From a virus (Duplodnaviria; Heunggongvirae; Uroviricota; Caudoviricetes), in the IMG/VR virus record IMGVR_UViG_2974574300_000001, positions 20,420-84,419 of that record: a stretch of 64,000 nt of DNA. One strand, given 5' to 3'. How positions within the stretch are numbered: the first letter of the stretch is position 1; the number at the start of each line of letters is the position of its first letter. Shown here piece after piece: positions 16,082 through 50,984 of this stretch. Made by a program: the position numbers and the translations under genes. The notes below the pieces were generated by a model. It ran no database searches, was not told where the DNA came from, and was given only the letters and a program-made list of their open reading frames with translations.

Positions 16082-16597
16082 TCAACTTAGTTTTGCAAAC
16101 TCTCCGTGGAGTTTAATAGCAGCTTCACAGTAAGCTTTATGGGCTTCTTCTTCCGTTGTGTATGTTCCTATATGTATAGTCTTGCCATTATGGTTAATCT
16201 GGGCTATCCACTTACCAGACTTGCTTCTACTTGTACCTTTTAAGTTTTTTGATGTTCTGGGTTGTCTCCTATTAGACATGTTCTGCTCTTTTGTGGCCTC
16301 TCTTAGATTGTCCCAAGCGTTATTCAAACCATCTCCATCTTTGTGGTCAATGTGTTTATCAGGCCACTTACCTGTCATCCAGAACCAAGCAATTCGGTGA
16401 TTACCTGTCCTGTATCCTAAAATCTGTGTGTGCATATACACACCAGACCTTGTGCGCTTAATTGCTCCGGCTTGGCTTCCAATGACCACCCTACTACTAT
16501 GTGGAGGTCTCCCAATCCATGTTAAGACCCCTGTTTCGGGGTCATAATCTAACCAAGACTTTAACTGTTCATGTGTGAATCCACAATCTCTCATCAA
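16082..16597 (-). CDS. HNH homing endonuclease with AP2-type DNA-binding domain
   Basis: 171 aa; YDPETGVLTW N-terminus, IDHKDGDGLNNAWDNL HNH region, C-terminal EEEAHKAYCEAAIKLHGEFA; free-standing, directly downstream of the polymerase. Confidence 0.65.
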   Translation of the reverse strand: MMRDCGFTHEQLKSWLDYDPETGVLTWIGRPPHSSRVVIGSQAGAIKRTRSGVYMHTQILGYRTGNHRIAWFWMTGKWPDKHIDHKDGDGLNNAWDNLREATKEQNMSNRRQPRTSKNLKGTSRSKSGKWIAQINHNGKTIHIGTYTTEEEAHKAYCEAAIKLHGEFAKLS

Positions 16598-17148
16598 TGT
16601 ACCTCATACCAGCTCTTACCAACTTTACCAGTACCAGTTACAAGCGTTTCCTCCTTAAGACCTAAGTTTCTTGATGCCTGACCATACATCCAGTCAATTA
16701 CTGCTTTAACATCCTGTGTCATCTCTTCTGGGCACTCCCAACTATTCTCGTCGTGGTATGCTAAAAGCAATCTAGCACCAATAGCTGGTTTTCGACCATT
16801 CAGCTTTGTAAGACCCTCTTCACAAGCCCTTCTACAAGCAAGGTTGATAGCTTCATTCTGAACCTGACTTTCCGAACCCATGAGCAAGTAATTTAAAAGT
16901 TTGTGCGGAGATTTACACCACAACCATGCACCTGCTACCTTTACAAAACCACCCTTAGAGATTGCAGCAGTCTTACCAAACACCTCTTCAAGAGCCTTCT
17001 TAGTGGCTTTGAAGTCTGCTTCCAAATTATCTATCAACTTTTTAATCTTAGGAAGGCGTACAAAGTAAGTTTGCTTAGTTAAAGCACCCTCTTCAGTAGT
17101 TGCAGCTTTAATCGTCTTAGCAAACTTCTCGTCACCTGCCCCAAACAA
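16594..17148 (-). CDS. DNA polymerase (family A), 3' exon
   Basis: 184 aa with FGAGDEKF (end of motif B) and LLAYHDE (motif C); separated from upstream pol ORF by an ORF-bearing intron-like insert. Confidence 0.7.
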   Translation of the reverse strand: MFGAGDEKFAKTIKAATTEEGALTKQTYFVRLPKIKKLIDNLEADFKATKKALEEVFGKTAAISKGGFVKVAGAWLWCKSPHKLLNYLLMGSESQVQNEAINLACRRACEEGLTKLNGRKPAIGARLLLAYHDENSWECPEEMTQDVKAVIDWMYGQASRNLGLKEETLVTGTGKVGKSWYEVH

Positions 17149-17951
17149 TACATCTGGTCAATACACTCGCAAGGTGTACCAGTTCTCTTATGAACTTCTC
17201 CGCATTTCTACGGAGTGTCGGACTATATCACGTAGCAGTGCTGCTACCGTTGCGCTTGGGATGGTCATTAGCTTACCACCCTACTCTACTCAGTTCATAC
17301 GTTAAGTATGCTTTTCGATAGTCTCTGAACGTTTCTCTGTTAGGAATCTCTATAATCATGTTATTTACTCAGGTAGTCAATTGCCCTTTGCATATTATCA
17401 ACGCTATCTGCAAGCAACCCCAAAGCTCTATTGCAATTGTGGCACAACATACCTCTTACTTTTCCGGTTTTGTGGTCATGGTCAACGACAAGTTTAGCCT
17501 TATGCCGTGAGCTATTCATGATAAAACCTTCACCGCCACAAATTTGACATTTGTAATCACAGTTACGAAGTAGGGTTTCAACCTCTTCTCTTTCTAAACC
17601 ATATGTTCTCAGGTAGTAATTCTTAACTCTACCTTTCTCTCCGCAATGCGAAGAACAATAAACTTGCCTTGCTGTTCTAGGCATGAACACCTTCTCACAG
17701 CTAGGACATTTCTTAGTAAGAACCCTATGTTCTGCTCTTCTGTCAAATTTTAATACGCAACTTCTGCACCGTTTTTGATTGTATTGGTATGGTTTAAACT
17801 CTGCACCACACTCAGTACACAATCTCTCTTTGTAACCTGCCATTGTCTCTCTCCTTTGTTTTAGGAGTCCTAACAGAGACTTCGCTGCTGATTACCATGT
17901 CTTTACAGACTTAGGCTTCCAGCAATTCACAACGTTTTACATGCGCCACTG
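17149..17951 (-). mobile_element. putative group I intron in the DNA polymerase gene (boundaries approximate)
   Basis: ~0.8 kb insert with stops in all pol frames, carrying an endonuclease ORF; joining ...RKKAKNGIYA to LLFGAG reconstructs the pol-A motif B spacing. Confidence 0.5.
17361..17843 (-). CDS. intron-encoded endonuclease (endonuclease VII-like HNH)
   Basis: 160 aa with multiple CxxC pairs and VVDHDHKTGKVRGMLCHNCNRALG, resembling T4 endo VII-type HNH. Confidence 0.6.
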   Translation of the reverse strand: MAGYKERLCTECGAEFKPYQYNQKRCRSCVLKFDRRAEHRVLTKKCPSCEKVFMPRTARQVYCSSHCGEKGRVKNYYLRTYGLEREEVETLLRNCDYKCQICGGEGFIMNSSRHKAKLVVDHDHKTGKVRGMLCHNCNRALGLLADSVDNMQRAIDYLSK

Positions 17952-20124
17952 ACGCATAAATACCATTCTTGGCTTTCTTACGACCCTTACTAATTTCTTG
18001 AAGAAGGTTTGTATCCTGAGTAGCTCGACAAGTCAAGATATCTTCCTCTTTATTAAGGCTGAAGTAGATACTATTTAAAGTATGTGCATCAGTTCCTGAG
18101 TACACCACGTACAAGTCATTTTCCGAATCATAATGCAAATACTTGTCAATCTCTGGGTTTAGATACTGGTCAAAATGTTTACAATAGTATCTACCATCCT
18201 CTTGTTTGACAAACTCAACCTCTTCTTTACCCTCTGTCACTGCTTTGGTGAACTCTTTATCACCCATAAAGTTACACAGCAGTACAAGTTGCGCGCTATT
18301 CATATCTGCTGAAACAATATTAGTCCCTTCTTCACAAGTCCACACCTCCCGCATAGGTGCTCCATAGACAGCAGCACCAGATGGTACGTTTACAATACCA
18401 TATTGTGTCATACGCCCAGTTGAAGTACCAAACACCATTGCACCAGCACTAAGGCGACCATCAGGACGAATCTGGTTCAACCAACCTTTTTCATCATCCT
18501 TTGAGTTCTCAATAGTTCTGCGTCTGTGCATCAAAGTATAGTATTTAGCAATCTTCTGTCCAAGCTCACCTTCAATCGTATCATAAGATGATTCAGTAAG
18601 TTTTGGCGAAGTACGGATTAAGCAAGGCTCAAGCAAATCTGTGTACTTCTTCACAGACCAGTTATGCTCAATGTACTGGACACCTTCATGTTCAACATAA
18701 CTCAAACCACACCGCTCAACCATTTCCTGCCACTTAGGATGTTTTGTAATCATCTTTTTATTGTCTTTGAAACGACAAACTTTGACAGGACGACCATCTG
18801 AGTCTTTCTTGTAGTTCCAGTCATCTGGAATCCAACCAACTGATTTCAAGTAGTCTTTAACAACTGCTACCTGAGTCATACGAGAAACTTCGAACTCAAT
18901 TGGTGTATATGGTGCATCAATCAAACCTGTGTAGCGACTTGACTCAAGTTCAAAGTGGTTAACGACGTGGCTGTTATAGTACTTCACAGTTTTGACTGTT
19001 TTTACTGGTTTCCAGTCTTTGCATTTCTTACCAATCTTTGCGTTCAACTCATTGCAAATTGCACGAGCATCCTTCATTGCTACAAAGCCTTCCTTGTACT
19101 CTTCACCAGTTACAGTGTTGGTTGGTGTATAGCAATTTCTCTTTTCAATGTTAAAAATCTTTGTAGTTGGCTTACCAAATGGCTTGATTTCATAAGTTTG
19201 CATCTCACCGTTACGTACCTGCTGACGATACTTTGTTTTAGGGTACTTGGTAATTCTCTTCAGTCCATCTGCATGACCAAATGTTTCAACATACTCATTC
19301 CAAGCTTTTGCAAACTCTTCTCCAGTGACTTTACCTTTGGTCTTAATAGTTGGAGGAAGATGTGGTTCAACCTCTGAAGCAAGCTCATTAGTCAACTTGT
19401 CAAGTTCCTTCACATGGAACTCCATAAGCTCTTTATCAGCTTTCCAACCATTGATAGCTTGTTGACTCATCCAGAAAGATGTTTCTTTAGCTCGCATGTA
19501 GGTTTCATAAGTGTCTATGCCACACTTCTTAAGCTTGAGATACTCATTATCAAGTGCCCGTTTAGTTTTGGCGTTAATACGGATATCTTCTACAACACGA
19601 GTGAAGATTTCTGCATTCCACACACCCCAATGCTCAATCTCTGGTTTACGAACACCAACACGAGCACCCCATGCAGCCAAACCATGAGCACCTTTATAAC
19701 CCTTTGGAGTTGGTCTATCCATCCACTGAACACGAGACTGGATAAGAGAATCCTGAAAGAAATTACTCCACGGCTTACATTTTGGATTATCAAAGTTCCA
19801 TAAATCCGGTGCAATGTGATTGAAGACCCACCAGTCATAACCGAGGCCGTTATGGATACAAAGTCGTTTTGCCTTTAACGCAAACTCAACACCTTCACGT
19901 AAACCACCCTTAATGTACTTAGTGTACTTGTGACCGAGGATAGGCTCATCTGTAAAGACCCATACAGGTGGCTCTTCATCGTCAGATTTATAGTCTGCAA
20001 AGGCCATTACGTGAACTTTAGTGAACTCAAGGAGTAAACCATCAGTTTCTGTATCACCAACCAAATGTAAGTTTTTAAAATCTACGTTTTCCATTTTTAC
20101 TCCCTCTAAAATCATTAACCCCAT
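17952..20124 (-). CDS. DNA polymerase (family A), 5' exon with 3'-5' exonuclease region
   Basis: ORF 17911..20124 (737 aa); the last ~13 codons are probably intron sequence; C-terminus reaches the start of motif B (RKKAKNGIY). Confidence 0.7.
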
Positions 20125-20350: not shown

Positions 20351-20773
20351 ATGCAGAAAATGTTTGTTCACCCAGACATAGCTGACTTTGTTAGAGCTTT
20401 GCAGAAGTTGGAAGAACTTGACATTGCTGCTCAACGGGAATATGCTCACCATCACAGGAGAATGGTTGATATACAACATGAAATAGAGTTGTCTGAAAAC
20501 TATGAAGATGACTTAAAATGCTCTGTATTTGAGCATATGAAAGATGTTGCTACAGCGAGACGTAAAGCTAAAGACACAGTTGCTTTACTAGATTCTCTTA
20601 AAAAGAGGTTGCAAAGTGGTACAGACCTGTGTAATCTAGCGTCACTGATTAACGATGTTGAAACTTCTTGGGATAGGCACTATTATCCACGTTCTGAAAA
20701 GACACTTGACTTTTCTTCATCCGAAAACTTAAAATGTTCTAGAAAGAAACTTAACCAACTGAGAGAGAAATAA
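20351..20773 (+). CDS. hypothetical protein
   Basis: 140 aa ORF opening the + strand replication block. Confidence 0.4.
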   Translation: MQKMFVHPDIADFVRALQKLEELDIAAQREYAHHHRRMVDIQHEIELSENYEDDLKCSVFEHMKDVATARRKAKDTVALLDSLKKRLQSGTDLCNLASLINDVETSWDRHYYPRSEKTLDFSSSENLKCSRKKLNQLREK

Positions 20774-27014: not shown

Positions 27015-27491
27015 AGAATACCTACACTATGACCCGAAACAGGGGTCTTTACTTGGTTAGTTGATAGAAAAGGTAAGGCCAAAGCTGGCTCAGTAGCAGG
27101 TTTTAAACACCATAGCGGTTATATCTATATAAAACTCTTCGGAAAAAGATATGCAGCACACAGGCTGGCATTCTTGTATATGAAAGGATACCTCCCAAAA
27201 TTTGTTGACCACAAGAATTGTATCAGATACGACAACTGGTTCGACAATTTGAGAGAGTGTAGCAGGTCAGACAACAACTGTAATGCAGTCAAAAGAAGAG
27301 ATAATAAGTCTGGTGTGAAGGGTGTATATTACCACAAGCAAAGAGGTAGATGGGCTGCACAAGTTAAGCATAATAAAGTTTGCTACCATCTAGGTCTATT
27401 TGACTCTGTTGCTGAGGCTGAAGAAGTTGTCAAAAAGAAAAGAGAAGAACTTCATAGAGAGTTTACAAATCACGGAGAAGCTCATGAATGA
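26992..27491 (+). pseudogene. HNH-AP2 homing endonuclease interrupted by a frameshift near 27033-27040
   Basis: ATG at 26992 gives MLTQQTLKEYLHYDPKQGSLLG then stop; next frame continues PETGVFTWLVDRKGKAKAGSVAGFKHHSGYIYIKLFGKRYAAHRLAF into ORF 27174..27491; YDPETGV(F/L)TW matches the intact paralogs at 16082 and 40416. Confidence 0.55.
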
Positions 27492-27988
27492 TTAAAGTTA
27501 AAGGTTTTGGGAGTTGTCCAACTTATGGACATTGGATTTCACTATGTGGTGAAGTTGACCCAGCAAAGCACTTTGGTTTTGTCTACCTAGTGTACTGCAA
27601 AAAGACTGGACAGTACTATTTGGGTAAAAAACAGCTTAACAGTGTGACCAAAAGAAAAGTTGCTGGTAAGACTCGGAAGAAGATAGTCACTAAGGAAAGT
27701 GATTGGATGACTTATGAGACTTCTTCTGAGTATATCAAAAAAGATATTGAAAGTTTTGGAAAAGAATTTTTTGACTTTTACATTATCCAAACCTACTACA
27801 CAAAAGGTGGTCTAGTTTATGGTGAAGCAAACCTTCAACATAAGTTCGATGTAATGACAAAAAGGATTGACTCGAAGCTCAGACTCTTCTACAATGCCAA
27901 TATTGCAGCAATTAAGTTTATTACCAAAGAAACTTATGAAGATGCTGAAAAAAGAATCCATAAGGTAATGAAAGTAAATTGTGCTTGA
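27488..27988 (+). CDS. putative GIY-YIG-like endonuclease
   Basis: 166 aa; FVYLVYCKKTGQYYLGKK resembles GIY-(x9-10)-YIG, then basic region. Confidence 0.35.
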   Translation: MIKVKGFGSCPTYGHWISLCGEVDPAKHFGFVYLVYCKKTGQYYLGKKQLNSVTKRKVAGKTRKKIVTKESDWMTYETSSEYIKKDIESFGKEFFDFYIIQTYYTKGGLVYGEANLQHKFDVMTKRIDSKLRLFYNANIAAIKFITKETYEDAEKRIHKVMKVNCA

Positions 27989-28009: not shown

Positions 28010-28258
28010 ATGTTTAACAAAAGTAAAGCTGTAAGTCATGTAGCAAAAGTTGACAGCAAGATTGAAGAACTTGAGCGCATCCTTGCAAATGCTAGAGAGT
28101 CAATAATTAAAGAAGTTGAAGCTGTTGAATCTCAAATGCAGCATCTAATGCTTAAACGTCAAGAGCTACGTGAGCATCTAGAATATATTGAAACACGAGA
28201 GCTAAAGGTTAACAAATATTTTAAGGAGTCCGAATGTTTAACTCAAGAGAATCAGTAA
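28010..28258 (+). CDS. small coiled-coil protein
   Basis: 82 aa, heptad-like pattern. Confidence 0.3.
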   Translation: MFNKSKAVSHVAKVDSKIEELERILANARESIIKEVEAVESQMQHLMLKRQELREHLEYIETRELKVNKYFKESECLTQENQ

Positions 28259-28989
28259 AAAACTGGAACCTTCGTTGTGGAAACACTCAAAAGCAACCTT
28301 ACAGTGATGAGTATTGGGAATCTTTAAAATCTCAATCTCTGTGTATGCTTGAAGAAGCAAAAGAACTTGTAAAAGCAATTGAAGAGGAAGACCCCATTGA
28401 GACACTGGATGCTCAGGCAGATTTACAATATGTTCTTGACGGCTTGATTTACCTGTCACAACATGACCATAACGGTGCTATGAAAGCTGTTTGTCATAAT
28501 AATGACCTGAAGTACACAGATGATTATGAAGAAGCTTTAAAACGTCTTGCAGACATTGAAAAGCGTACTGGTCAAGAGTGTATTATCAGAATGTCAGTAG
28601 TTGATGGTAAAGAGTGGTATGCGATTGTTCGTGCAGCCGATGGGAAGATTATGAAGCAATCAAATCTCCCTAAAGTACAGCTTGGTGAATACATTGTAGA
28701 GCTTGAAAGCCAAGAACTTTTTGTGGTAGTATCTGAGACATGCGTTATCTGCAAAGGTATTGTAGGTAGCTTAAAGGATTTGGGTGTAGATGGTTTTGTA
28801 GAAGTTAATCCAATTACCTCTAAAGCAGATAAAGATTTCTGTAAAGAGAACGGACTATGGATTGCAGATATTGTCTACTATGATGGTGAGCAGTTCCATG
28901 TAACCTCATACCCGAAACTGAATTATGATGCTAATAACCTGAAGTGCTGGTTAAAAGGGGTTGGTTATAATGGATTCACAGAACATTAA
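28234..28989 (+). CDS. hypothetical protein, possible MazG-like pyrophosphohydrolase N-terminal region
   Basis: 251 aa; LEEAKELVKAIEEEDPIETLDAQADLQYVLDGL resembles the MazG E-x-x-E...D helix pair; weak. Confidence 0.3.
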   Translation: MFNSRESVKNWNLRCGNTQKQPYSDEYWESLKSQSLCMLEEAKELVKAIEEEDPIETLDAQADLQYVLDGLIYLSQHDHNGAMKAVCHNNDLKYTDDYEEALKRLADIEKRTGQECIIRMSVVDGKEWYAIVRAADGKIMKQSNLPKVQLGEYIVELESQELFVVVSETCVICKGIVGSLKDLGVDGFVEVNPITSKADKDFCKENGLWIADIVYYDGEQFHVTSYPKLNYDANNLKCWLKGVGYNGFTEH

Positions 28990-33777: not shown

Positions 33778-34974
33778 ATGAACAAAGTACAGATTATTAA
33801 AAAGAATGGCTCACTCGAAGAACCTGATATCAAAAAAGTTTTAGCAGCAGTCACAAAGTCAGCTAACAGAGTTGGTTATAAAGAGCTTCCACCAGATGTT
33901 ACTCAAGCTCTTGAGTCAGCATTTATGAGGATTCTGGTAAAGTCCACTAAGCAGAATAATTTACTCATTTCAGTAAATGATATTCACAGTATTGTTGAGG
34001 GTGCTTTGGCAGAAGTCAATCACGAGATTTATGAGTCTTACTCAACATATAGAAATTACCGTAAAGAAGTTGCTCAGAATTGGGATGAACTCTACCAGAA
34101 GACCAAAGATACACTCTTCTTAGGTGACCGAGAAAACGCTAATTTTGACAGCAGTTTAATTTCTACAAAAGGTTCAATTATTCGTGGTTATCTGACTAAA
34201 GAAATCTTTAAACAGTACCATTTAACACCAGAGGAACTTGAAGCCATTGAAAAAGGGTTTATCTATATCCATGATTTAAGAGACCTAATTTTTGGTGGTA
34301 TCAACTGTTGCCTGTTTGACATTGGTAAAGTCCTGAAAGGTGGCTTTGAAATGTCTGGCATTGAATATTGTGAACCGAAGTCTGTACTGTCAGCCTTACA
34401 GGTTATTGGTGACGTAGTTCTTTCAGCAACTGCACAGCAATTTGGTGGCTTTACTTTAGCAGAGATTGATAAGGTACTTGTGCCGTATGCTAAGAAGTCT
34501 CTACGCTATCATGCTGAGAAAGCAACAGCTTATGGTATTCCTAAAGAACATTACCACAACTATGTCATGGAGCAGCTACAGATTGAATTAACTCAAGGTT
34601 TTCAGTCTCTTGAAATGAAACTAAATACTGTACCTTGTAGCCGTGGTGATTTTGCATTCACAACTTTGACATTCGGGTTGCTTGACTCAGATATGTCTAA
34701 TGAAGATAACCGACTGCAATACATGATTGCGAGCACTCTCCTAGATGTTCGTATGAATGGACAAGGTAAGAGCAAGAAGCCTGTTGTATTCCCTAAATTG
34801 GTTTATATTTATGACCAGAAGAGACACAATGAGAATATCTGTCAAGGCCACCTGTACAGTAAAGCTATTGAGTGTTGCTCTAAAGCTATGTATCCAGATT
34901 TCTTAAGTGTATCTGGACATGGTGCTGTAGCAGAGGCTTTTGAGCGTTCTGGCAAGGTAATTTCCCCGATGGGT
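33778..34974 (+). CDS. nrdD: anaerobic ribonucleotide reductase (class III), 5' exon
   Basis: 399 aa beginning with an ATP-cone-like N-terminus; frame ends ...VISPMG then stop at the proposed intron start. Confidence 0.75.
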
Positions 34975-35716
34975 TAACAGGCTCTATAGCTCATCTAAAA
35001 CGTGCCTAAACAGGGAAACTCTACAGATGTAGACAATCCTGTGCTAAATGATGTACGATGTAAGAAACTATACAACATAGGAGTCTTACATGCCAAACTA
35101 TCACGTCACTGAAGATGGAAAAGTCTTTAGGGAAAATGGTGTAGAGCTTACGCAGTGGAAATCCAACACTGGGTATATGAAAGTGAGGTTTTACGGTAAG
35201 AAGAATCGTGACATGTATGTCCACAGGTTAGTTGCTGAGAAATATGTACCTAACCCAAATAATCTTCCAATTGTAAAACATAAGGACGATAACAAACTAA
35301 ATAACCACGCATCTAACTTAGAATGGGGTACTCATTCTGAGAATGCTAAAGAAGGTTATGAGAACGGATGCTACAAGTTCCACAAGCGTTCATATGCCGT
35401 GAAAGCCACACACAAAGTGACAAAGGAAGTTATTGTTGCTAAGTCAATACGAGAGTTATCCAATATACTTGGACACAATCGCAAGACCATCTCTTCAATA
35501 TTGAAGGGTGTAAAAGAGCATAATAACTTCGAATATGAGTTTGAATACATCTAAATGCCGAACGACTAACCGTGATGAATGTAGCGGTGTAGGGTCAAGC
35601 GACTCGAAATGGTACGCTACTTAGAAATAAGTAGAAGATATAGTCTGGACTTACTGGCGACAGTAAGCAGCTTGAATAAAGCGGGGTAAGCTTAGCGAAC
35701 TTACCTGAACAACAAG
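34975..35716 (+). mobile_element. putative group I intron in nrdD carrying an HNH endonuclease ORF
   Basis: 742 nt insert; upstream exon ends in T, insert ends in G; splicing gives ...VISPMG-CRAFLSPYHNEYGEEFYVGRANIGAVSLNLP and a 714 aa product. Confidence 0.6.
35090..35554 (+). CDS. intron-encoded HNH homing endonuclease
   Basis: 154 aa with VHRLVAEKYV...KHKDDNKLNNHASNLEWGTHSEN (HNH-type His/Asn motif). Confidence 0.6.
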   Translation: MPNYHVTEDGKVFRENGVELTQWKSNTGYMKVRFYGKKNRDMYVHRLVAEKYVPNPNNLPIVKHKDDNKLNNHASNLEWGTHSENAKEGYENGCYKFHKRSYAVKATHKVTKEVIVAKSIRELSNILGHNRKTISSILKGVKEHNNFEYEFEYI

Positions 35717-36664
35717 TGTAGAGCATTTTTATCACCATACCATAACGAATATGGTGAAGAGTTTTATGTAGGTCGTGCTAACATTGGTGCTGTATCTTTG
35801 AACTTACCAATGATTTACCAGTATTCTAAAGAGAATGGCTTAGATTTCTGGAAAGAGCTTGATAAGTACCTAGAAATGATTCGCAGCTTCCACAAGAAAC
35901 GTTACGAAATGATTGCTAATATGCCAGCAAGTTCTAACCCTCTTGCATTCACACAAGGTGGTCTGTACAAAGGGAATAAGAAACCTACTGACAAGGTTGG
36001 CTGGGATATCGTGAAGTCCTTCACAGCTTCTTTTGGGGTTACTGCGCTTGATGAGCTAGATGTTCTTGCTGAAGGTAAACGACTTCATGAAGTTGGAAGC
36101 TGTAGTTTTGCATATGATGTTCTGGAATATATCAACATGAAGACTGAAGAGTTTAAAAATGAAGATGGCTTCTTATATGCAGTCTATGGCACTCCAGCAG
36201 AATCACTTTGTGGAACTCAGCTAAAACAGTTCAGAGATATGTTTGGCGTTATCAAAGGCGTTTCTGACAAGGAATACTTTACAAACAGCTTCCATATGAA
36301 TGTTGCAGCCGACATTACACCATTTGAGAAGCAGGACTTAGAAGAACCCTTCTTCCATATCTGTAGAGGCGGCAGAATCCAGTATGTAAGAGTGGCTAAT
36401 CCAGAAAACTTACCAGCACTTAAGAGTTGTATTACAAGAGGGATGTTGAAAGGTTTCTATCAGGGACTTAACTTTGACTTAGCAATCTGTGAGCATTGTG
36501 GCAACAGACCAAAGGCTGATGTTGAAGAATGTGAGGTTTGTCATTCACACGATATCTCTGTGATTAACAGGGTGTGCGGGTACTTGTCATTCACAAAAAT
36601 TAAAGGTCAGTCTCGAATGAATGACGCTAAGATGGCAGAAATTAAGGATAGGGTTTCTATGTAG
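35717..36664 (+). CDS. nrdD: anaerobic ribonucleotide reductase (class III), 3' exon
   Basis: Frame open from 35696; contains a four-Cys cluster and C-terminal glycyl-radical motif RVCGYL. Confidence 0.75.
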   Translation, partial: CRAFLSPYHNEYGEEFYVGRANIGAVSLNLPMIYQYSKENGLDFWKELDKYLEMIRSFHKKRYEMIANMPASSNPLAFTQGGLYKGNKKPTDKVGWDIVKSFTASFGVTALDELDVLAEGKRLHEVGSCSFAYDVLEYINMKTEEFKNEDGFLYAVYGTPAESLCGTQLKQFRDMFGVIKGVSDKEYFTNSFHMNVAADITPFEKQDLEEPFFHICRGGRIQYVRVANPENLPALKSCITRGMLKGFYQGLNFDLAICEHCGNRPKADVEECEVCHSHDISVINRVCGYLSFTKIKGQSRMNDAKMAEIKDRVSM

Positions 36665-36671
36665 AATACAA

Positions 36672-37229
36672 ATGAATTACGAACTAATATATAATGCAAT
36701 TATTAAGAAGGCACATTCTGAAAGGGGTGTGCCTCTTACATACTACAAATGTCAAGGTAAGGGTTATGAAAGACACCATATCATACCAGTGTGTCTAGGT
36801 GGCGATAAAATTAGTGGAGATAATATTGCTTTACTTACACCTAGAGAGCATTATGTAGCTCATAAATTACTGGTTAAGATGTATCCAAACAATCATAAGT
36901 TATGGTTTGCATGGAACAGGTTAGCTCATGATGGCCTAGATAGGAAAATATCATCCAGAGACTATGAAAAGGTAAGGGCTTTGAACTCGAAAGCTTCATC
37001 CATTGTGAATAAAGGTAGGGTTTTCACTGAAGAACATCGAAGACGATTAGGAGAATCTCAAATAGGTAATACAAAATCAAAAGGTTGTAAAAGGTCTATA
37101 GAAACAAGGAAGAGGATGTCAGAAGCCGGAAAAAAGCCAAAGAAAAAGAAAACTTGCCATCATTGTGGTATGACTGGTGGTGCTGGTAACATGACTCGAT
37201 ATCATTTTGACAATTGTAAGAAAAAATAA
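36672..37229 (+). CDS. free-standing HNH homing endonuclease
   Basis: 185 aa from ATG at 36672 (track start 36621 overlaps nrdD); GYERHHIIPVCLGGDKISGDNIALLTPREHYVAH HNH core, basic C-terminus. Confidence 0.6.
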   Translation: MNYELIYNAIIKKAHSERGVPLTYYKCQGKGYERHHIIPVCLGGDKISGDNIALLTPREHYVAHKLLVKMYPNNHKLWFAWNRLAHDGLDRKISSRDYEKVRALNSKASSIVNKGRVFTEEHRRRLGESQIGNTKSKGCKRSIETRKRMSEAGKKPKKKKTCHHCGMTGGAGNMTRYHFDNCKKK

Positions 37230-38676: not shown

Positions 38677-38689
38677 ACAGATACTATAA

Positions 38690-38715
38690 GGGAACTGTAA
38701 AGGTTCCCTTTTTAT
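38690..38715 (+). terminator. rho-independent terminator
   Basis: gggaac-tgtaaag-gttccc followed by tttttatttt. Confidence 0.55.
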
Positions 38716-38727
38716 TTTGGAGATAAA

Positions 38728-39243
38728 ATGTATCTGTCAAACCTGAAACGTTCGGCTGCAATGTCAGTCCTAAGACTCAGCTTTGAGGAACGTCAAGAGT
38801 TCATTGACTCCCACCAATACGACCCTTCTAACTCGAATCACATGGTTCTTTGGAATCGTGATAACTTCCGTGAAAGAGCACTTGTCCGTTATTACCCACA
38901 CTACACAATAGATAACCTGTATGAATGGTGTGTTGTGAAGAACACTATTGCAACACTGAACAATCTTTGCAGGTATACAGGTAAGCAAGCATTTACATTA
39001 GGCCACCACAAACCTGTTACAAAGGGTGGTGAGCATCACTGTGCAAACTGGTTTATCCAGACTAAGCTCGATAACCAGAAGCAAGGAGATAACCTTCTAA
39101 GCACACCTAAGATGACCTATGAAGAGCAAGAGAAATATATCAAAAATAATATGCCAGATGTGCTTGACAACAACTATACAGATTTGGCAATATCTCTCCT
39201 GTTGAAGTTCGAGACAGTTTATAGGGCAACTTATAATGGCTAA
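38728..39243 (+). CDS. hypothetical protein, possible HNH-like nuclease
   Basis: 171 aa; LGHHKPVTKGGEHHCANWFIQTKLDNQ loosely fits an HNH core. Confidence 0.3.
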   Translation: MYLSNLKRSAAMSVLRLSFEERQEFIDSHQYDPSNSNHMVLWNRDNFRERALVRYYPHYTIDNLYEWCVVKNTIATLNNLCRYTGKQAFTLGHHKPVTKGGEHHCANWFIQTKLDNQKQGDNLLSTPKMTYEEQEKYIKNNMPDVLDNNYTDLAISLLLKFETVYRATYNG

Positions 39244-39514
39244 AGAGAAGTGGAAGATTTTACCATTAGTCAGTGAAGGTGGTAATGGTTGTGAAATGTA
39301 CATGATACGTGGTCATGTTCCAGAACCAATTGCACTTGAGATGGTAAACAACTTTACAGATGGCTCTTACAAAGACTTAGGGGAGCCAACTATAAAGCAG
39401 CAATGGGTAAAGCCTGTACCAGACAGCACAGGTAACTGTAGTGTACTTTATCACGTTGTAGACCCTGCAAAATGCAAATCTGCAATGGCAGTAACAAACG
39501 TAACTTTTGATTGA
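39236..39514 (+). CDS. hypothetical protein
   Basis: 92 aa ORF. Confidence 0.35.
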   Translation: MAKEKWKILPLVSEGGNGCEMYMIRGHVPEPIALEMVNNFTDGSYKDLGEPTIKQQWVKPVPDSTGNCSVLYHVVDPAKCKSAMAVTNVTFD

Positions 39515-40407
39515 GAGAGAAAACTATGAAAACATCTATCCGTGTTACAGTTCATTCACCAACTAAAGGGACTCATGAAGAAGAGTTTAACATCGTCCAA
39601 TTTCCTTCTGGTGAGATTGGTGGACATTTTTCACCAGAGTTTGTTGATTTTACTGCTTATGCTGCATCATCCATCAACAACGTGATTATGATTGTAAAGG
39701 GTTATGACAAAGACACATTATTTGCTGTGGCACTTGCTAAAGAGGCAATTGATGATTTAGTACCTCATAAGTTTGCTATGAAGACTGCTATCTTTTACTA
39801 TTTGCCAAATGCACGTTACGACCGTCACATGTTTAAAGGCGATGCAGCAGCTTTGAAAGTGTTTGCACAACAGGTTAATGCAATGGGTTTTGATGCAGTC
39901 TGTGCAGTTGACCCTCATAGTTACGTTCCAGATAACCTTTTCAACTGCTTCCAGAGTATTCCTCAAAAGGAGATTGCAGTCCACTATGCAAATGACCCTC
40001 TGATTGATTACTTAGTAGCCCCAGATGCAGGTGCTTCTAAGAAGATTGCAGAGACTGCTAAAGAGGTGGATAAACCATATATCACAATGTCTAAAGTACG
40101 CAACCTTAAGACTGGTGAAATAACTGGTATGCGAATCCTTGATGATGTTGATTTGACAGATAAAACTGTCATGATTCTTGATGATATTTGTGATGGTGGT
40201 CGAACCTTCGTAGAAGCAGCGAAACATCTTCGTGAAGCAGGTGCAAAACGTGTGGAACTTTATGTAACACATGGTATCTTCTCTAAAGATGTTGAAAACC
40301 TTCTTGACAATGGTATCGACCATATTTACACTACAAACTCTTTAGGCGAAGCTAAAGACCGTGGCTTAACACATTACAGTCAAGTTACTGTAGCAAACCT
40401 TGATTAG
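39511..40407 (+). CDS. ribose-phosphate pyrophosphokinase family protein (Prs-like; candidate Adps-type)
   Basis: 298 aa; two-domain phosphoribosyltransferase-like architecture with PRPP-binding-loop-like VMILDDICDGGRT. Confidence 0.6.
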   Translation: MREKTMKTSIRVTVHSPTKGTHEEEFNIVQFPSGEIGGHFSPEFVDFTAYAASSINNVIMIVKGYDKDTLFAVALAKEAIDDLVPHKFAMKTAIFYYLPNARYDRHMFKGDAAALKVFAQQVNAMGFDAVCAVDPHSYVPDNLFNCFQSIPQKEIAVHYANDPLIDYLVAPDAGASKKIAETAKEVDKPYITMSKVRNLKTGEITGMRILDDVDLTDKTVMILDDICDGGRTFVEAAKHLREAGAKRVELYVTHGIFSKDVENLLDNGIDHIYTTNSLGEAKDRGLTHYSQVTVANLD

Positions 40408-40415
40408 GTAACAGT

Positions 40416-40907
40416 ATGAATAAGGGTTATTTTGAAAGATACCTAATATATGAACCAGATACAGGTTTATTAATTTGGAGAGTAACCCTTTGCAGTACCG
40501 CTATTGCTGGTAATGTGGCTGGCACAAGGTCTAAGAAGGGTTATATCCAAGTCCAGATAAATAAGAAGAGGTACTATGCACATAATATTGCATGGATTAT
40601 GTCTGGAGGTGAGATACCAAGTGGATATGAGATAGACCACATAGACCTTGATAAATCTAATAATAAGTTGGAGAATTTAAGACTTAGCACAAAGTCACAA
40701 AATCAGAGGAATAGGGGTATATACAAGAATAATAAAACTGGTGTGAAGGGTGTAAGTTTTTGTAAACAAACAGGTCTTTACAAAGCAAGAGTCATGCTTT
40801 ACCATAAAGAATACTTTTGTGGAAGATTTAAAACGGTAGAAGAAGCAAAAGAAGCTGTAATTAAAAAGCGAATAGAACTTCATGGTGAGTTTGCAAGACA
40901 TAACTAA
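40416..40907 (+). CDS. HNH homing endonuclease with AP2-type DNA-binding domain
   Basis: 163 aa; YEPDTGLLIW N-terminus, YEIDHIDLDKSNNKLENL HNH region, C-terminal EEAKEAVIKKRIELHGEFA; sits between the Prs-like and NAMPT-like genes. Confidence 0.65.
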   Translation: MNKGYFERYLIYEPDTGLLIWRVTLCSTAIAGNVAGTRSKKGYIQVQINKKRYYAHNIAWIMSGGEIPSGYEIDHIDLDKSNNKLENLRLSTKSQNQRNRGIYKNNKTGVKGVSFCKQTGLYKARVMLYHKEYFCGRFKTVEEAKEAVIKKRIELHGEFARHN

Positions 40908-40921
40908 GAGAGAGATAAAAT

Positions 40922-42703
40922 ATGAGTAAGTCACTTTACGCAGTACCAGCAGGTCTTAATGCAGATGCTTACAAGGCATCACATATATATCAGTATCCAG
41001 ATGCTACGCAATATCTTATGTTGAACCTGACACCACGTAGTGATAAATGGTTTAACAGTCCTTTAGCAATTGACGGTGTAGTGGCTTTTGGTATTCAACG
41101 TTTTGTTAAAGATTACTTGATAGACCACTGGAACGCCACTTTCTTTGAACGTGATAAAAAAGAAGCAATTGATGAAATCTTAGAAGTCATGAATGGTGTT
41201 CTGGGTAAAGATGCTATCGGTCGAGAGCATTGGGAAGCACTTCACGACTTAGGTTATCTACCAGTTGAAGTATACGCTGTAGAAGAAGGCACAGTTGTCC
41301 CTATGCGTGTTCCAATGATTGTCTTCCAGAACACTGTTTCAGGTTTCCATTGGGTAGCAGGTTATCTGGAAGATGCTTTCTCTGCTGAGATTTGGAAGGC
41401 TTGCACCATTGCGACTATCGCATTGCACTACAAACGTATCTGTAAGAAGTGGGCTGACCTTACTTGCGACAACGACTTACATTTACCTTATCAGTGCCAT
41501 GACTTTGCTATGCGTGGTATGTCCGGCTTTACTGATGACGCATTTAATGCTGTAGGTCACTTAACCAGCTTTAAAGGGACTGATAGCTTCCCTGCTGTAT
41601 ACACAGCTAAACGTATCTATGGACAGTCTTGCCCAATCTCTGATATTGGCAGTTCTGTACCAGCCACTGAACACTCTGTGATGTGTGCAAACATTGCTTG
41701 GGAAGGTGGTAACGAGTTGGTTGAAGAAGAAAGACGATTTAAAGGTGAGTTGCAAACCTTCCGTCGTTTCTTAACAGAAACTTACCCAACTGGTATTGCA
41801 AGTATTGTTTCAGATACTTATAACTTCTGGAGAACTGTGTCAGAAATCTTACCAGCACTTCGTAAAGAAATTATGGAACGTGATGGTAAGCTGGTAATTC
41901 GCCCTGACTCTGGAGACCCTGTACATATTGTCACAGGTTATAAAGCAATCCACTTAGAGTGTGCTAAAAAGGCTTACTACGAGCACCTAAGCAAGCTAGA
42001 GGCAAGTGATACAATGCTGAACTCTGTCCTGAACATGAAGCTTGAAAACATTAGTTACGGTATTGCTGGATGGCTACTGTCAGAAGGCTACGAGATGGTT
42101 GTTGACAGAGAAGACTTTGGAGTTGCTGATACAGTGATGTTGAAAAATGCTTATATGGTTGGTTCTGCAAACGTTGTAACACGTCCTGTAGCTGAAATTG
42201 ATGGAGCTATTAAGACACTGTACAACATCTTTGGGGGAACTATTAACTCTAAAGGATTTAAGGTACTTGATGAGCACATCGGCCTTATCTATGGTGACTC
42301 TATCACGCTGGAACGTGCAAACGAAATCCTGAAGCGTCTGTATGAAATGGGTTTTGCAAGCTCTAACGTAGTGTTTGGTGTAGGCTCTTACACTTACCAG
42401 TACATGACTCGTGACACCTTTGCATTTGCTGTCAAAGCAACTCTTGCAAGCATTGGTGGTAAAGAGATTATGCTTGCAAAAGACCCTAAAACAGATAGTG
42501 GTGTTAAGAAGTCTGCCTTTGGTGGTGTAGCACCCATGTGGGATGGTGATAAGCTGAAAGCTGTAGATGGCTATGGATTCCGGAGTTTTGCAGATGTACT
42601 TGACCACCCAGCTTGTGCTTTACGTTTAGTCTTTAGCGACTCTGAGCAGTTCGGTTATACAACTCTTGGTGATATTCGAAACAATATTGACAAGCAGCTT
42701 TAA
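40922..42703 (+). CDS. nicotinamide phosphoribosyltransferase family protein (NAMPT-like; candidate Namat-type)
   Basis: 593 aa; NAMPT-like N-terminus (GLNADAYKASHIYQYP), ~100 aa longer than typical NAMPT. Confidence 0.6.
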   Translation: MSKSLYAVPAGLNADAYKASHIYQYPDATQYLMLNLTPRSDKWFNSPLAIDGVVAFGIQRFVKDYLIDHWNATFFERDKKEAIDEILEVMNGVLGKDAIGREHWEALHDLGYLPVEVYAVEEGTVVPMRVPMIVFQNTVSGFHWVAGYLEDAFSAEIWKACTIATIALHYKRICKKWADLTCDNDLHLPYQCHDFAMRGMSGFTDDAFNAVGHLTSFKGTDSFPAVYTAKRIYGQSCPISDIGSSVPATEHSVMCANIAWEGGNELVEEERRFKGELQTFRRFLTETYPTGIASIVSDTYNFWRTVSEILPALRKEIMERDGKLVIRPDSGDPVHIVTGYKAIHLECAKKAYYEHLSKLEASDTMLNSVLNMKLENISYGIAGWLLSEGYEMVVDREDFGVADTVMLKNAYMVGSANVVTRPVAEIDGAIKTLYNIFGGTINSKGFKVLDEHIGLIYGDSITLERANEILKRLYEMGFASSNVVFGVGSYTYQYMTRDTFAFAVKATLASIGGKEIMLAKDPKTDSGVKKSAFGGVAPMWDGDKLKAVDGYGFRSFADVLDHPACALRLVFSDSEQFGYTTLGDIRNNIDKQL

Positions 42704-42716
42704 AAGTATATGATAA

Positions 42717-42740
42717 GAGGCTCCTACGGGAGCCTTTTTA
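42717..42740 (+). terminator. rho-independent terminator
   Basis: gaggctcc-tacg-ggagcc followed by ttttt. Confidence 0.6.
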
Positions 42741-50204: not shown

Positions 50205-50984
50205 ATGGGTATTGTAAAAGTTGTGAAAGGTAACTTACTGGCTGCCTTCAAAAACACAGATATTGAGTTAATTGCTCATGGTTGCAACTGTCGTAACCTC
50301 ATGGGTGCTGGAATCGCTCAAAAAATTGCTAAGATTTTCCCAAAAGCTGAAGAAGCTGACCGGAAATTCCATAAAAAGTTTGGCTACAGTGCTCATGATA
50401 TCGGATACCAGATGGTCGGTGAGGTGTCACATGCTCGAACGGAGTATGGTTACATTTTTAACCTATATACACAGTTGGATGTTGGGAAGTGTGCATCATA
50501 CCGATACTTAGTGGAGTCACTAGAAAAACTCCGTAAATTTTGCTGGCTGCACAACATTCGTAAGATTGGTTTACCCATGATTGGGGCAGGTATAGGTGGT
50601 TTAGATGCACAAGCTGTGAAAAGCCTCATTAATAGTGTTATGTATAACGTTGATGTGTACCTCTACGTCTATGATGAAACAATGGCAAGTGTAGTTACCC
50701 CTAAGTATGCTACCTCAGCACCACAATTCTATGATGGTGTCGTGCTAAGTGACGGGAAGACTAATCAAGTTACCCTCTATCAACTTGTTGAAGGTAAGGT
50801 CGAGGTTAGTTACCCTCTGGTTAGTGAGATGGGTATGTGCAACAGTGAAATGTTCCCAGTTGACCCGTTTGGAAGATATGAAGGTGTATTCTTTGATAAC
50901 TACCCAGCAGCGTACATCTACACAACAAATCAGGATGAAGTTCACTACTTGCTGTATTCTAAAAAGTTCAAATTCATAAGCTGA
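50205..50984 (+). CDS. macro-domain-like protein (ADP-ribose binding/processing)
   Basis: 259 aa; ELIAHGCNCRNLMGAGIAQKIAKIFP resembles the macro-domain glycine-rich loop of the OARD1/TARG1-like subgroup, as recalled. Confidence 0.45.
   Translation: MGIVKVVKGNLLAAFKNTDIELIAHGCNCRNLMGAGIAQKIAKIFPKAEEADRKFHKKFGYSAHDIGYQMVGEVSHARTEYGYIFNLYTQLDVGKCASYRYLVESLEKLRKFCWLHNIRKIGLPMIGAGIGGLDAQAVKSLINSVMYNVDVYLYVYDETMASVVTPKYATSAPQFYDGVVLSDGKTNQVTLYQLVEGKVEVSYPLVSEMGMCNSEMFPVDPFGRYEGVFFDNYPAAYIYTTNQDEVHYLLYSKKFKFIS

Follow-up and report, generated by a model that had tools for sequence, protein, structure and literature searches.

The stretch of viral DNA analyzed here (64,000 nucleotides, positions 20,420 to 84,419 of the IMG/VR record IMGVR_UViG_2974574300_000001, hereafter the window) carries on its + strand a gene of the ribose-phosphate pyrophosphokinase (Prs) family and a gene of the nicotinamide phosphoribosyltransferase (Nampt) family, separated by an open reading frame (ORF) encoding a homing endonuclease. 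We conclude that the two enzyme genes very probably form the NAD+ reconstitution pathway 1 (NARP1) counter-defence operon of a FelixO1-like phage, as adps and namat, and that the endonuclease gene is an insertion standing outside the pathway. The module itself is already known, having been characterized in this same genus. The new material is small and consists of a mobile endonuclease within the operon in about a quarter of the phages, of the linkage of this endonuclease to a haplotype of the namat 5′ end, and of an unlinked Macro-domain protein resembling Adpp. Together, Adps and Namat counter a broad range of defences that deplete NAD+ (SIR2-HerA, Thoeris, DSR, and SEFIR), which is of relevance for the choice of FelixO1-like phages for the biocontrol of Salmonella or Escherichia coli. 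The GenBank records examined in the genus label the two genes “ribose-phosphate pyrophosphokinase” and “nicotinamide phosphoribosyltransferase”; these labels should read Adps and Namat.

Orthology with the Bas63 locus and Namat-type residues

By its sequence, the window belongs to a Felixounavirus: a 4.3-kb query around the locus was 99.1% identical at the nucleotide level to the Salmonella phages PMBT20, Mushroom, and GEC_vB_B1, and it matched 259 records, essentially all of them FelixO1-like phages of the Ounavirinae. The same genus includes Escherichia phage Bas63 (JohannRWettstein, MZ501086), in whose genes 79-80 the NARP1 pathway was first identified (Osterman et al., bioRxiv 10.1101/2024.02.11.579819). 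The earlier note had described Prs-like and NAMPT-like genes that were co-oriented and split only by an HNH-AP2 ORF. We recovered all three ORFs as real and co-oriented on the + strand, with gaps of 8 nt between the Prs-like and HNH ORFs and of 14 nt between the HNH and NAMPT-like ORFs, the co-oriented adps and namat genes being 514 nt apart. The gene order is that of Bas63, namely NrdG, gp77, gp78, gp79, gp80, and then rIIA and rIIB.

The product of namat (nicotinamide ADP-ribose transferase, 593 amino acids, 40922..42703, + strand) aligned without gaps and at equal length with Bas63 gp80, 578 of the 593 positions being identical (97%). The product of adps (ADP-ribose pyrophosphokinase of the Prs family, 293 amino acids, 39526..40407, + strand) was identical to Bas63 gp79 at 233 of 293 positions (80%), the C-terminal 110 amino acids being nearly identical. 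The Prs-like ORF had been called from 39511 to 40407 (Pfam Pribosyltran and Pribosyl_synth; phrog_619, “ribose-phosphate pyrophosphokinase”, E 4.6e-98) and was accordingly presented in the earlier note as a protein of 298 amino acids. We revised this start. It is most likely the ATG at 39526, the TTG at 39511 being an ORF-caller artefact, since the upstream ORF ends with a stop at 39512-39514 that is followed by GAGAGAGAAAACT-ATG, and since the ribosome-binding motif GAGAGAGA found 5′ of adps recurs 5′ of namat. The corresponding ATG is also the start annotated for Bas63 gp79 and for all relatives.

Judged by sequence and position, the window genes are thus orthologues of Bas63 genes 79 and 80 at the same locus, beyond family-level resemblance, and it is on this ground that the claim of a NARP1 module, as opposed to canonical salvage, held. 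NARP1 pairs are delimited as an Adps-clade gene of the Prs family lying within ten genes of a Namat homologue, as is the case for the window genes; Bas63 gp79 was itself among the query sequences that define the Adps clade (10.1101/2024.02.11.579819). The window resembles the Bas63 locus in genus, synteny, flanking genes, ribosome-binding motifs, and clamp residues. It differs from it by a 500-bp HNH cassette in place of a 30-nt intergenic hairpin, by a namat 5′ haplotype (hapA instead of hapB, see below) that amounts to six amino-acid changes in residues 19-34 and to Ser2 for Thr2, and by the allele of the N-terminal half of Adps.

In Bas63, deletion of 79-80 lowered plating about 20-fold on cells carrying SIR2-HerA, this phenotype was kept in a pncC nadR double-deletion host, and pyrophosphorylated ADP-ribose (ADPR-PP) was seen only in defence-carrying cells with wild-type Bas63 (10.1101/2024.02.11.579819). 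The purified homologues from SpβL1 converted ADP-ribose and ATP to ADPR-PP, then ADPR-PP and nicotinamide to NAD+ (10.1101/2024.02.11.579819). An independent knockout screen, with single deletions of g79 and g80 and complementation, confirmed the Bas63 locus. From the orthology with the Bas63 and SpβL1 proteins, we infer the same ADPR-PP chemistry and escape from defence for the window enzymes. When an NAD+-depleting defence (SIR2-HerA, type I Thoeris, DSR1/2, or SEFIR) splits NAD+ into ADP-ribose and nicotinamide, Adps (39526-40407) would use ATP to pyrophosphorylate ADP-ribose into ADPR-PP, and Namat (40922-42703) would join ADPR-PP and nicotinamide directly into NAD+, with neither a nicotinamide mononucleotide (NMN) intermediate nor an NMNAT.

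The earlier note had proposed profile searches and an inspection of active-site residues. The former matched families named after Prs and NAMPT, with the Namat structures 9w5w and 9w5x as best PDB hits, and the latter found the Namat clamp motifs, the ligand contacts, and the catalytic lysine of Adps all in place. The NAMPT-like ORF matched NAPRTase and NAMPT_N in Pfam and phrog_448 (E 1.9e-201). The mark that separates Namat from Nampt is the signature GS-X-Φ-X-Φ-X-Φ-TRD, with an aromatic X, in the selectivity-clamp helix (SCH), while in the selectivity-clamp loop (SCL) the adenine is stacked either by an Arg at the third position or by a Lys or Tyr followed by a stacking fourth residue (PMC12774641). 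The window protein exhibits GSYTYQYMTRD at residues 488-498 (42383..42415, + strand), a motif that fits the published signature and was common to 35 out of 35 aligned homologues. Its SCL, S40-D41-K42-W43 (41039..41050, + strand), aligned to T38-S39-R40-V41 of SpβL1 and corresponds to the Lys-then-aromatic variant, exactly as in Bas63, where the Lys at the third position hands adenine stacking to the fourth residue (PMC12774641).

The catalytic core was also recovered, with D15, Y17, F195, R198, D221, R327, and D329 in the window Namat corresponding to D13, Y15, F189, R192, D215, R306, and D308 of SpβL1, and with the catalytic histidine as H251 in the motif ATEHS. The residue equivalent to R306, whose mutation abolished the activity of the SpβL1 enzyme, is therefore present (R327). 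The contacts of SpβL1 with nicotinamide, NMN, and AMP, mapped by HMMER alignment, were all conserved or conservatively replaced. In Adps, the lysine of the loop SKVRN, a segment that is the same in Bas63, aligned with EKERD of the Prs structure 4twb, in the flexible loop of Prs; the catalytic lysine of Adps is K162 in SpβL1, equivalent to K197 of the Bacillus subtilis Prs.

Comparisons with known structures gave a consistent picture. In the PDB sequence search, the window Namat matched the two Namat entries (9w5w and 9w5x) with E about 1e-129, and was far closer to them than to the Nampt of Xanthomonas (~1e-52) or to mammalian Nampt (human, ~1e-41). An AlphaFold2 model built on the 35-sequence alignment (mean predicted local distance difference test, pLDDT, 92.7; predicted template modeling score, pTM, 0.91) had as best fold match 9w5x, “Crystal structure of Namat”, with a template modeling (TM) score of 0.95 on the target and a root-mean-square deviation of 2.0 Å. 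The window pair thus resembles Adps and Namat of SpβL1 (PDB 9w5w, 9w5x; PMC12774641) in fold, catalytic core, SCH signature, and ligand contacts, whereas the window Namat is only 47% identical to that of SpβL1, has two insertions, and uses Lys-Trp rather than Arg in the SCL.

These insertions account for the additional length noticed in the earlier note, which described the protein as about 100 amino acids longer than typical NAMPTs. The count is right (593 amino acids vs. 491 in SpβL1 Namat and about 490 in NAMPTs), but its use as evidence for NARP1 is not tenable. The SpβL1 Namat is of normal length, and the extra residues are lineage-specific insertions at two indel hot-spots. The minor one (residues 257-275, 41690..41746, + strand), defined relative to SpβL1 Namat, lies at a site whose length varied from 5 to 44 amino acids among the 35 homologues. 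The major one (residues 343-427, 41948..42202, + strand), absent from SpβL1 Namat, is predicted to form a compact alpha/beta subdomain, modeled with AlphaFold2 at pLDDT 93-96 with defined secondary structure; its site varied from 11 to 91 amino acids among the 35 homologues, and tblastn matches to the segment were confined to 252 records of the Ounavirinae type. The text of the Namat structural paper makes no mention of it (PMC12774641). The long form of Namat was found down to about 46% identity in other myophages of 85-92 kb (Yersinia P778, Pectobacterium Arno162, and Salmonella SB18). Since Bas63 gp80 works with the insertions and the SpβL1 protein works without them, the extra length is neither needed for nor diagnostic of NARP1, and we rejected it as a hallmark of the pathway.

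Rival readings of the enzyme pair

Several observations weigh against the assignment to NARP1. The second-best relative of the window Namat, in structure as in sequence, is a genuine Nampt, the NadV of Haemophilus ducreyi (E 1e-105), which indicates that the Namat and Nampt classes are close in sequence. The window protein also passed the NCBIfam model NF006629 (nicotinate phosphoribosyltransferase; 470 bits for a cut-off of 405), a model that does not separate Namat from Nampt. Namat enzymes retain PRPP-dependent synthesis of NMN in vitro (PMC12774641), and some canonical salvage activity may exist alongside the reconstitution of NAD+. In its N-terminal half, the window Adps belongs to another allele than that of the tested Bas63 (~70% amino-acid identity), and the function of this half is presumed. 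Lastly, the phage tested in vivo lacks the insert, and its intergenic hairpin has no counterpart in the window, so that the expression of namat could differ here.

In the endonuclease-less genomes, including Bas63, a 45-nt spacer stands in place of the segment 40408-40921. Upstream of the same GAGAGAGA ribosome-binding site, the spacer contains a hairpin, GGGGCTT(G/A)AAAGCCCC followed by ATTTT, which folds as a GC-rich stem of 6 bp with a tetraloop (GGGGCU-UGAA-AGCCCC, -11.5 kcal/mol, then AUUUU). It was present at L002:13637-13652 and, at the corresponding position, in every relative without the endonuclease that we examined, and it is removed by the cassette. We do not claim that this hairpin is a terminator, its z-score being only -1.7 and its T-run short. 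The cassette (40408..40907, + strand) swaps out about 30 nt, leaving intact both enzyme ORFs and the ribosome-binding region of namat (GAGAGAGA-N6-ATG, 40908..40921, + strand), as deduced from the alignment with endonuclease-less genomes.

One could imagine that the insertion has impaired the operon, either through polarity or because the hairpin is gone, and that the window carries a decaying remnant with weak or unbalanced expression of Namat. The 30-nt hairpin shared by every endonuclease-less genome examined is indeed missing here, and Bas63, in which the pathway was tested in vivo, belongs to the endonuclease-less phages. We nevertheless consider such a remnant very unlikely, both enzyme ORFs being full length and namat having kept its GAGAGAGA site. 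Moreover, the arrangement adps-HNH-namat was recovered with intact ORFs in 60 records from three genera, including the diverged endonuclease lineages of FelixO1, Moogle, and SUSP1, and its being kept intact over such a range suggests a long-term coexistence of the endonuclease with a functional module.

The other rival to a NARP1 operon is a booster of canonical NAD+ salvage, in which the Prs-like enzyme would supply phosphoribosyl pyrophosphate (PRPP), the NAMPT-like enzyme would produce NMN from it and nicotinamide, and the host would complete the synthesis of NAD+ through NadR or PncC. The names given by Pfam, PHROG, and GenBank, all of them Prs and NAMPT, speak for such a booster, as does the match to NF006629, but the behavior of the orthologues largely refutes it. 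Bas63, with proteins 97% and 80% identical to those of the window, overcomes SIR2-HerA in the pncC nadR double-deletion host and makes ADPR-PP, and the SpβL1 Adps phosphorylates ADP-ribose whereas it gave no product in the Prs-type reaction. In the window itself, the Namat-specific adenine clamp is present and the Prs equivalog models all failed by large margins: the Prs-like ORF passed only the broad subfamily model TIGR01251 (125.9 bits for a cut-off of 113) and fell below every NCBIfam Prs equivalog cut-off, the best being NF002095 (105.8 bits for a cut-off of 296). A salvage booster is therefore, in our opinion, highly improbable.

The search for an NMNAT led in the same direction. The earlier note had seen no NMNAT gene in the window, and a Pfam scan bore this out: about 50 ORFs of 130 amino acids or more were scanned in the window, which covers about 64 of the ~86 kb of the genome, and none had a CTP_transf_like (NMNAT) or a Nudix domain. 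The annotation of Bas63 from 40 to 87 kb lists no NMNAT either. The absence of NMNAT in the window agrees with the literature, where NARP1 and NARP2 were never encountered in one genome. The window pair resembles NARP2 and its Nampt (KVP40 NadV/NatV; H. ducreyi NadV, 9ke8) in its type II phosphoribosyltransferase fold and in its nicotinamide-binding chemistry. However, NARP2 and canonical salvage combine Nampt and Nmnat with no Adps partner, whereas in the window an Adps gene adjoins the module, the protein has the clamp motif of Namat, and no Nmnat partner was found.

Another ORF of the window might be mistaken for a gene of NAD metabolism. The ORF 27488-27988 (+ strand) matched phrog_447, “NAD synthetase” (E 2e-47), and also a SegE-type GIY-YIG endonuclease in Pfam (E 1e-26). 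We rejected it as further NAD metabolism on the basis of the Pfam match, the PHROG label looking misleading.

The homing endonuclease and the 5′ end of namat

The ORF 40416-40907 of the cassette encodes a 163-amino-acid protein with an HNH_3 domain and an AP2-like domain. The HNH_3 match covered positions 1-46 of the 46 in the profile (E 1.7e-19), the AP2 match was weak and under the Pfam cut-off (E 4.5e-4), and the whole protein matched phrog_99 (E 2.9e-68). The 514-bp segment 40408-40921 was found in 60 records and its flanks in 232-259 records; about 170 related records have no endonuclease, and the insertion always follows the stop of adps and precedes the ribosome-binding site of namat. 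In FelixO1, the endonuclease is ORF128, located between ORF127 and nadV. The protein is a homing endonuclease of the free-standing type, encoded at a fixed intergenic site and taking no part in the pathway.

The endonuclease insert was 99.8-100% identical among phages whose flanks were about 94-97% identical. The window and phage LinBro exhibited a single difference over 659 nt (40400-41058), with a divergence of 5-8% outside this tract, which comprises the endonuclease and the first 137 nt of namat. The same trend was observed across genera (Moogle and phiSUSP1), the endonuclease being 90-91% identical vs. 81-84% for the 3′ end of adps and for namat. These comparisons show a recent transfer of the endonuclease from one genome to another, along with about 140 nt from the start of namat. 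The endonuclease would cut endonuclease-less alleles near the adps/namat junction.

A reading of the middle ORF as a NARP1 accessory like Adpp or RyDEP, for which one could invoke the Adps-Macro-Namat order of the Vibrio phages Gary and Morian and the RyDEP found at or next to this slot in DyoEdafos, can be practically dismissed. The ORF encodes a complete HNH_3 nuclease that also has a DNA-binding domain of the AP2 type, and a paralogue 38% identical to it interrupts PolA elsewhere in the window. It further exhibits a tract of horizontal transfer, and about three quarters of the relatives do without it, including Bas63, where NARP1 works.

The cassette recalls the free-standing homing endonucleases of T4-like phages (mobE between nrdA and nrdB, and the seg genes), which lie, without a promoter of their own, in the intergenic space of two conserved genes linked by function, display presence/absence polymorphism, and are transferred with their flanks. 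The window endonuclease differs from these examples by its family (HNH_3 with AP2, phrog_99). There are about six endonuclease genes in the window, adjoining or inside conserved genes (PolA, NrdD, and NrdD/NrdG), among which the HNH-AP2 paralogue in PolA is the one 38% identical to the endonuclease of the operon. The endonuclease is an ordinary feature of these genomes; according to earlier comparative work, FelixO1-like phages differ from one another mainly by endonuclease indels, located inside conserved genes or in the gaps separating them. The earlier note had taken the insertion as a sign that the module is a target of selfish elements. The selfish nature of the insertion is borne out by its polymorphism and by the transfer tract, but the module is not singled out, given the number of endonuclease genes in the window. 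Within the library that we searched, no paper mentioned both NARP1 and homing endonucleases.

As for the other insertions, the family A DNA polymerase gene (16082-20124, - strand) is in two fragments, 16594-17148 and 17911-20124, with the HNH-AP2 endonuclease (16082-16597) and an EndoVII-like ORF (17361-17843) beside or between them. In the region 33778-37229 (+ strand), NrdD is split (33778-34977 and 35798-36664) by an HNH ORF (35090-35554); the nrdD of Bas63 is annotated as a two-piece join with a homing endonuclease inside. An HNH/NUMOD3 endonuclease (36621-37229) follows between NrdD and NrdG, where Bas63 has small hypothetical ORFs. The SegE-type GIY-YIG ORF (27488-27988) also belongs to this set of endonuclease genes.

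The 5′ end of namat exists in two haplotypes that differ by about 20 linked substitutions within 69 nt (40955..41023, + strand), and the window carries the one linked to the endonuclease, hapA. We compared the window and 27 relatives with readable junctions. All seven typed genomes with the homing endonuclease gene (HEG+) had hapA and none had hapB, whereas hapA was present in four and hapB in 16 of the genomes lacking the gene (HEG-). Fisher's exact test gave p = 3.7e-4, a value that is no true probability, the genomes being related. Codon 2 of namat separated the two groups, reading AGT in every HEG+ genome and ACT in every HEG- genome. The other genera of Ounavirinae were hapA-like with or without the endonuclease, which makes hapB, confined to endonuclease-less Felixounaviruses, the derived tract. 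For the same reason, we rejected the possibility that hapA is a derived, cleavage-resistant flank made by the endonuclease. The distribution of the haplotypes suggests an action of the endonuclease at or near the adps/namat junction, by which hapB would be either erased through co-conversion or left alone as refractory to homing; in the latter case, the hapB tract could be a variant of the target site.

The two alleles of the adps 5′ half observed in Felixounaviruses follow another distribution. They share about 64% of their nucleotides and about 70% of their amino acids, with an intragenic breakpoint near 40000. The divergent segment of the window (39526..40000, + strand) was about 64% identical to the Bas63-type allele and 88-99% identical to other copies of the window-type allele at the nucleotide level. 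Of the 26 genomes typed, the window included, 21 carry the window-type allele, and the rarer allele is that of Bas63. These alleles assort freely with respect to both the endonuclease and the namat haplotype.

The unlinked Macro-domain gene and the surroundings of the operon

In NARP1-AP, described in Vibrio phage Gary (10.64898/2026.01.28.702374), a Macro gene lies within the operon. The window resembles this system by its core pair and by the presence of a third gene in between; the genome also encodes a Poa1p-like Macro protein, possibly a counterpart of the one in the operon. The window differs from this system in that the slot is occupied by the HNH homing endonuclease instead of a Macro phosphatase, the only Macro ORF (50205-50984, + strand) being located 7.5 kb downstream of the NARP1 unit and encoding a longer C-terminus.

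This ORF encodes a 259-amino-acid Macro-domain protein (PF01661; phrog_335, “phosphatase”, E 2e-85), with about 100 additional amino acids at the C-terminus. It matched TARG1 (E 5e-8) and the ADP-ribose-1″-phosphatase Poa1p (E 1e-4) in the PDB, and it was 29% identical (E 1e-14) to gp169 of Vibrio phage Morian, which sits between the Adps and Namat of that phage in the NARP1-AP layout. The Macro family was found in 2,832 phage records, many of them probably without NARP1. The window gene was only 41% identical to its Bas63 orthologue at the same position (L002:23278-24063) and was at least 95% identical in just 11 records; as with the 5′ half of adps, this is a strongly divergent allele within a genome that is ~95% identical elsewhere.

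The Macro protein could act as an unlinked Adpp, converting ADP-ribose-1″-phosphate to ADP-ribose for Adps, and could thus extend the NARP1 pathway. If so, these phages would also overcome aRES-type defences, although operon-based surveys would not count them. We put forward only tentatively, as a joint proposal that is rather doubtful as a whole, that the window encodes an unlinked NARP1-AP via the Macro protein and that the homing endonuclease shapes the distribution of namat alleles.

Two terminator-like hairpins, both identified as consensus matches only, bracket gp77, gp78, adps, the endonuclease, and namat. The first (38688..38710, + strand; 9-bp stem followed by a T-run) is the likely upstream boundary of the unit, and the second (42715..42738, + strand; 10-bp stem with 5 GC pairs and a T-run) lies 12 nt past the namat stop. 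Transcription of the unit would begin ahead of gp77 and end at the hairpin that follows namat. A promoter scan remained at background level (18 found vs. 13.5 ± 3.9 expected).

The first ORF of the unit (38728..39243, + strand) is orthologous to Bas63 gp77 (92% amino-acid identity to bas63_0077). In profile searches it matched phrog_3500 and, weakly, an HNH-like motif (HHKPVTKGGEHHCANW), with no match to GIY-YIG. Bas63 gp77 has been reported as a counter to retron Ec67 and described as GIY-YIG (PhageMaP preprint). It is followed by a small ORF of unknown function (39236..39514, + strand; phrog_4726, E 4.5e-60), orthologous to Bas63 gp78 and at the same position as bas63_0078. Just downstream of the module, rIIA and rIIB are reported counters to QatABCD. 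Judged by these reports on gp77 and rIIA/rIIB, the module sits in an anti-defence neighborhood.

Elsewhere in the window, Pfam scans recovered NrdA/B, NrdD/G, rIIA/B, thymidylate synthase, DHFR, PolA, and tail-fibre genes. Upstream of nrdA, a 251-amino-acid ORF (28234-28989, + strand) with a MazG-like PRA-PH domain (PF01503, E 9e-6) encodes a protein of the nucleotide pyrophosphohydrolase type.

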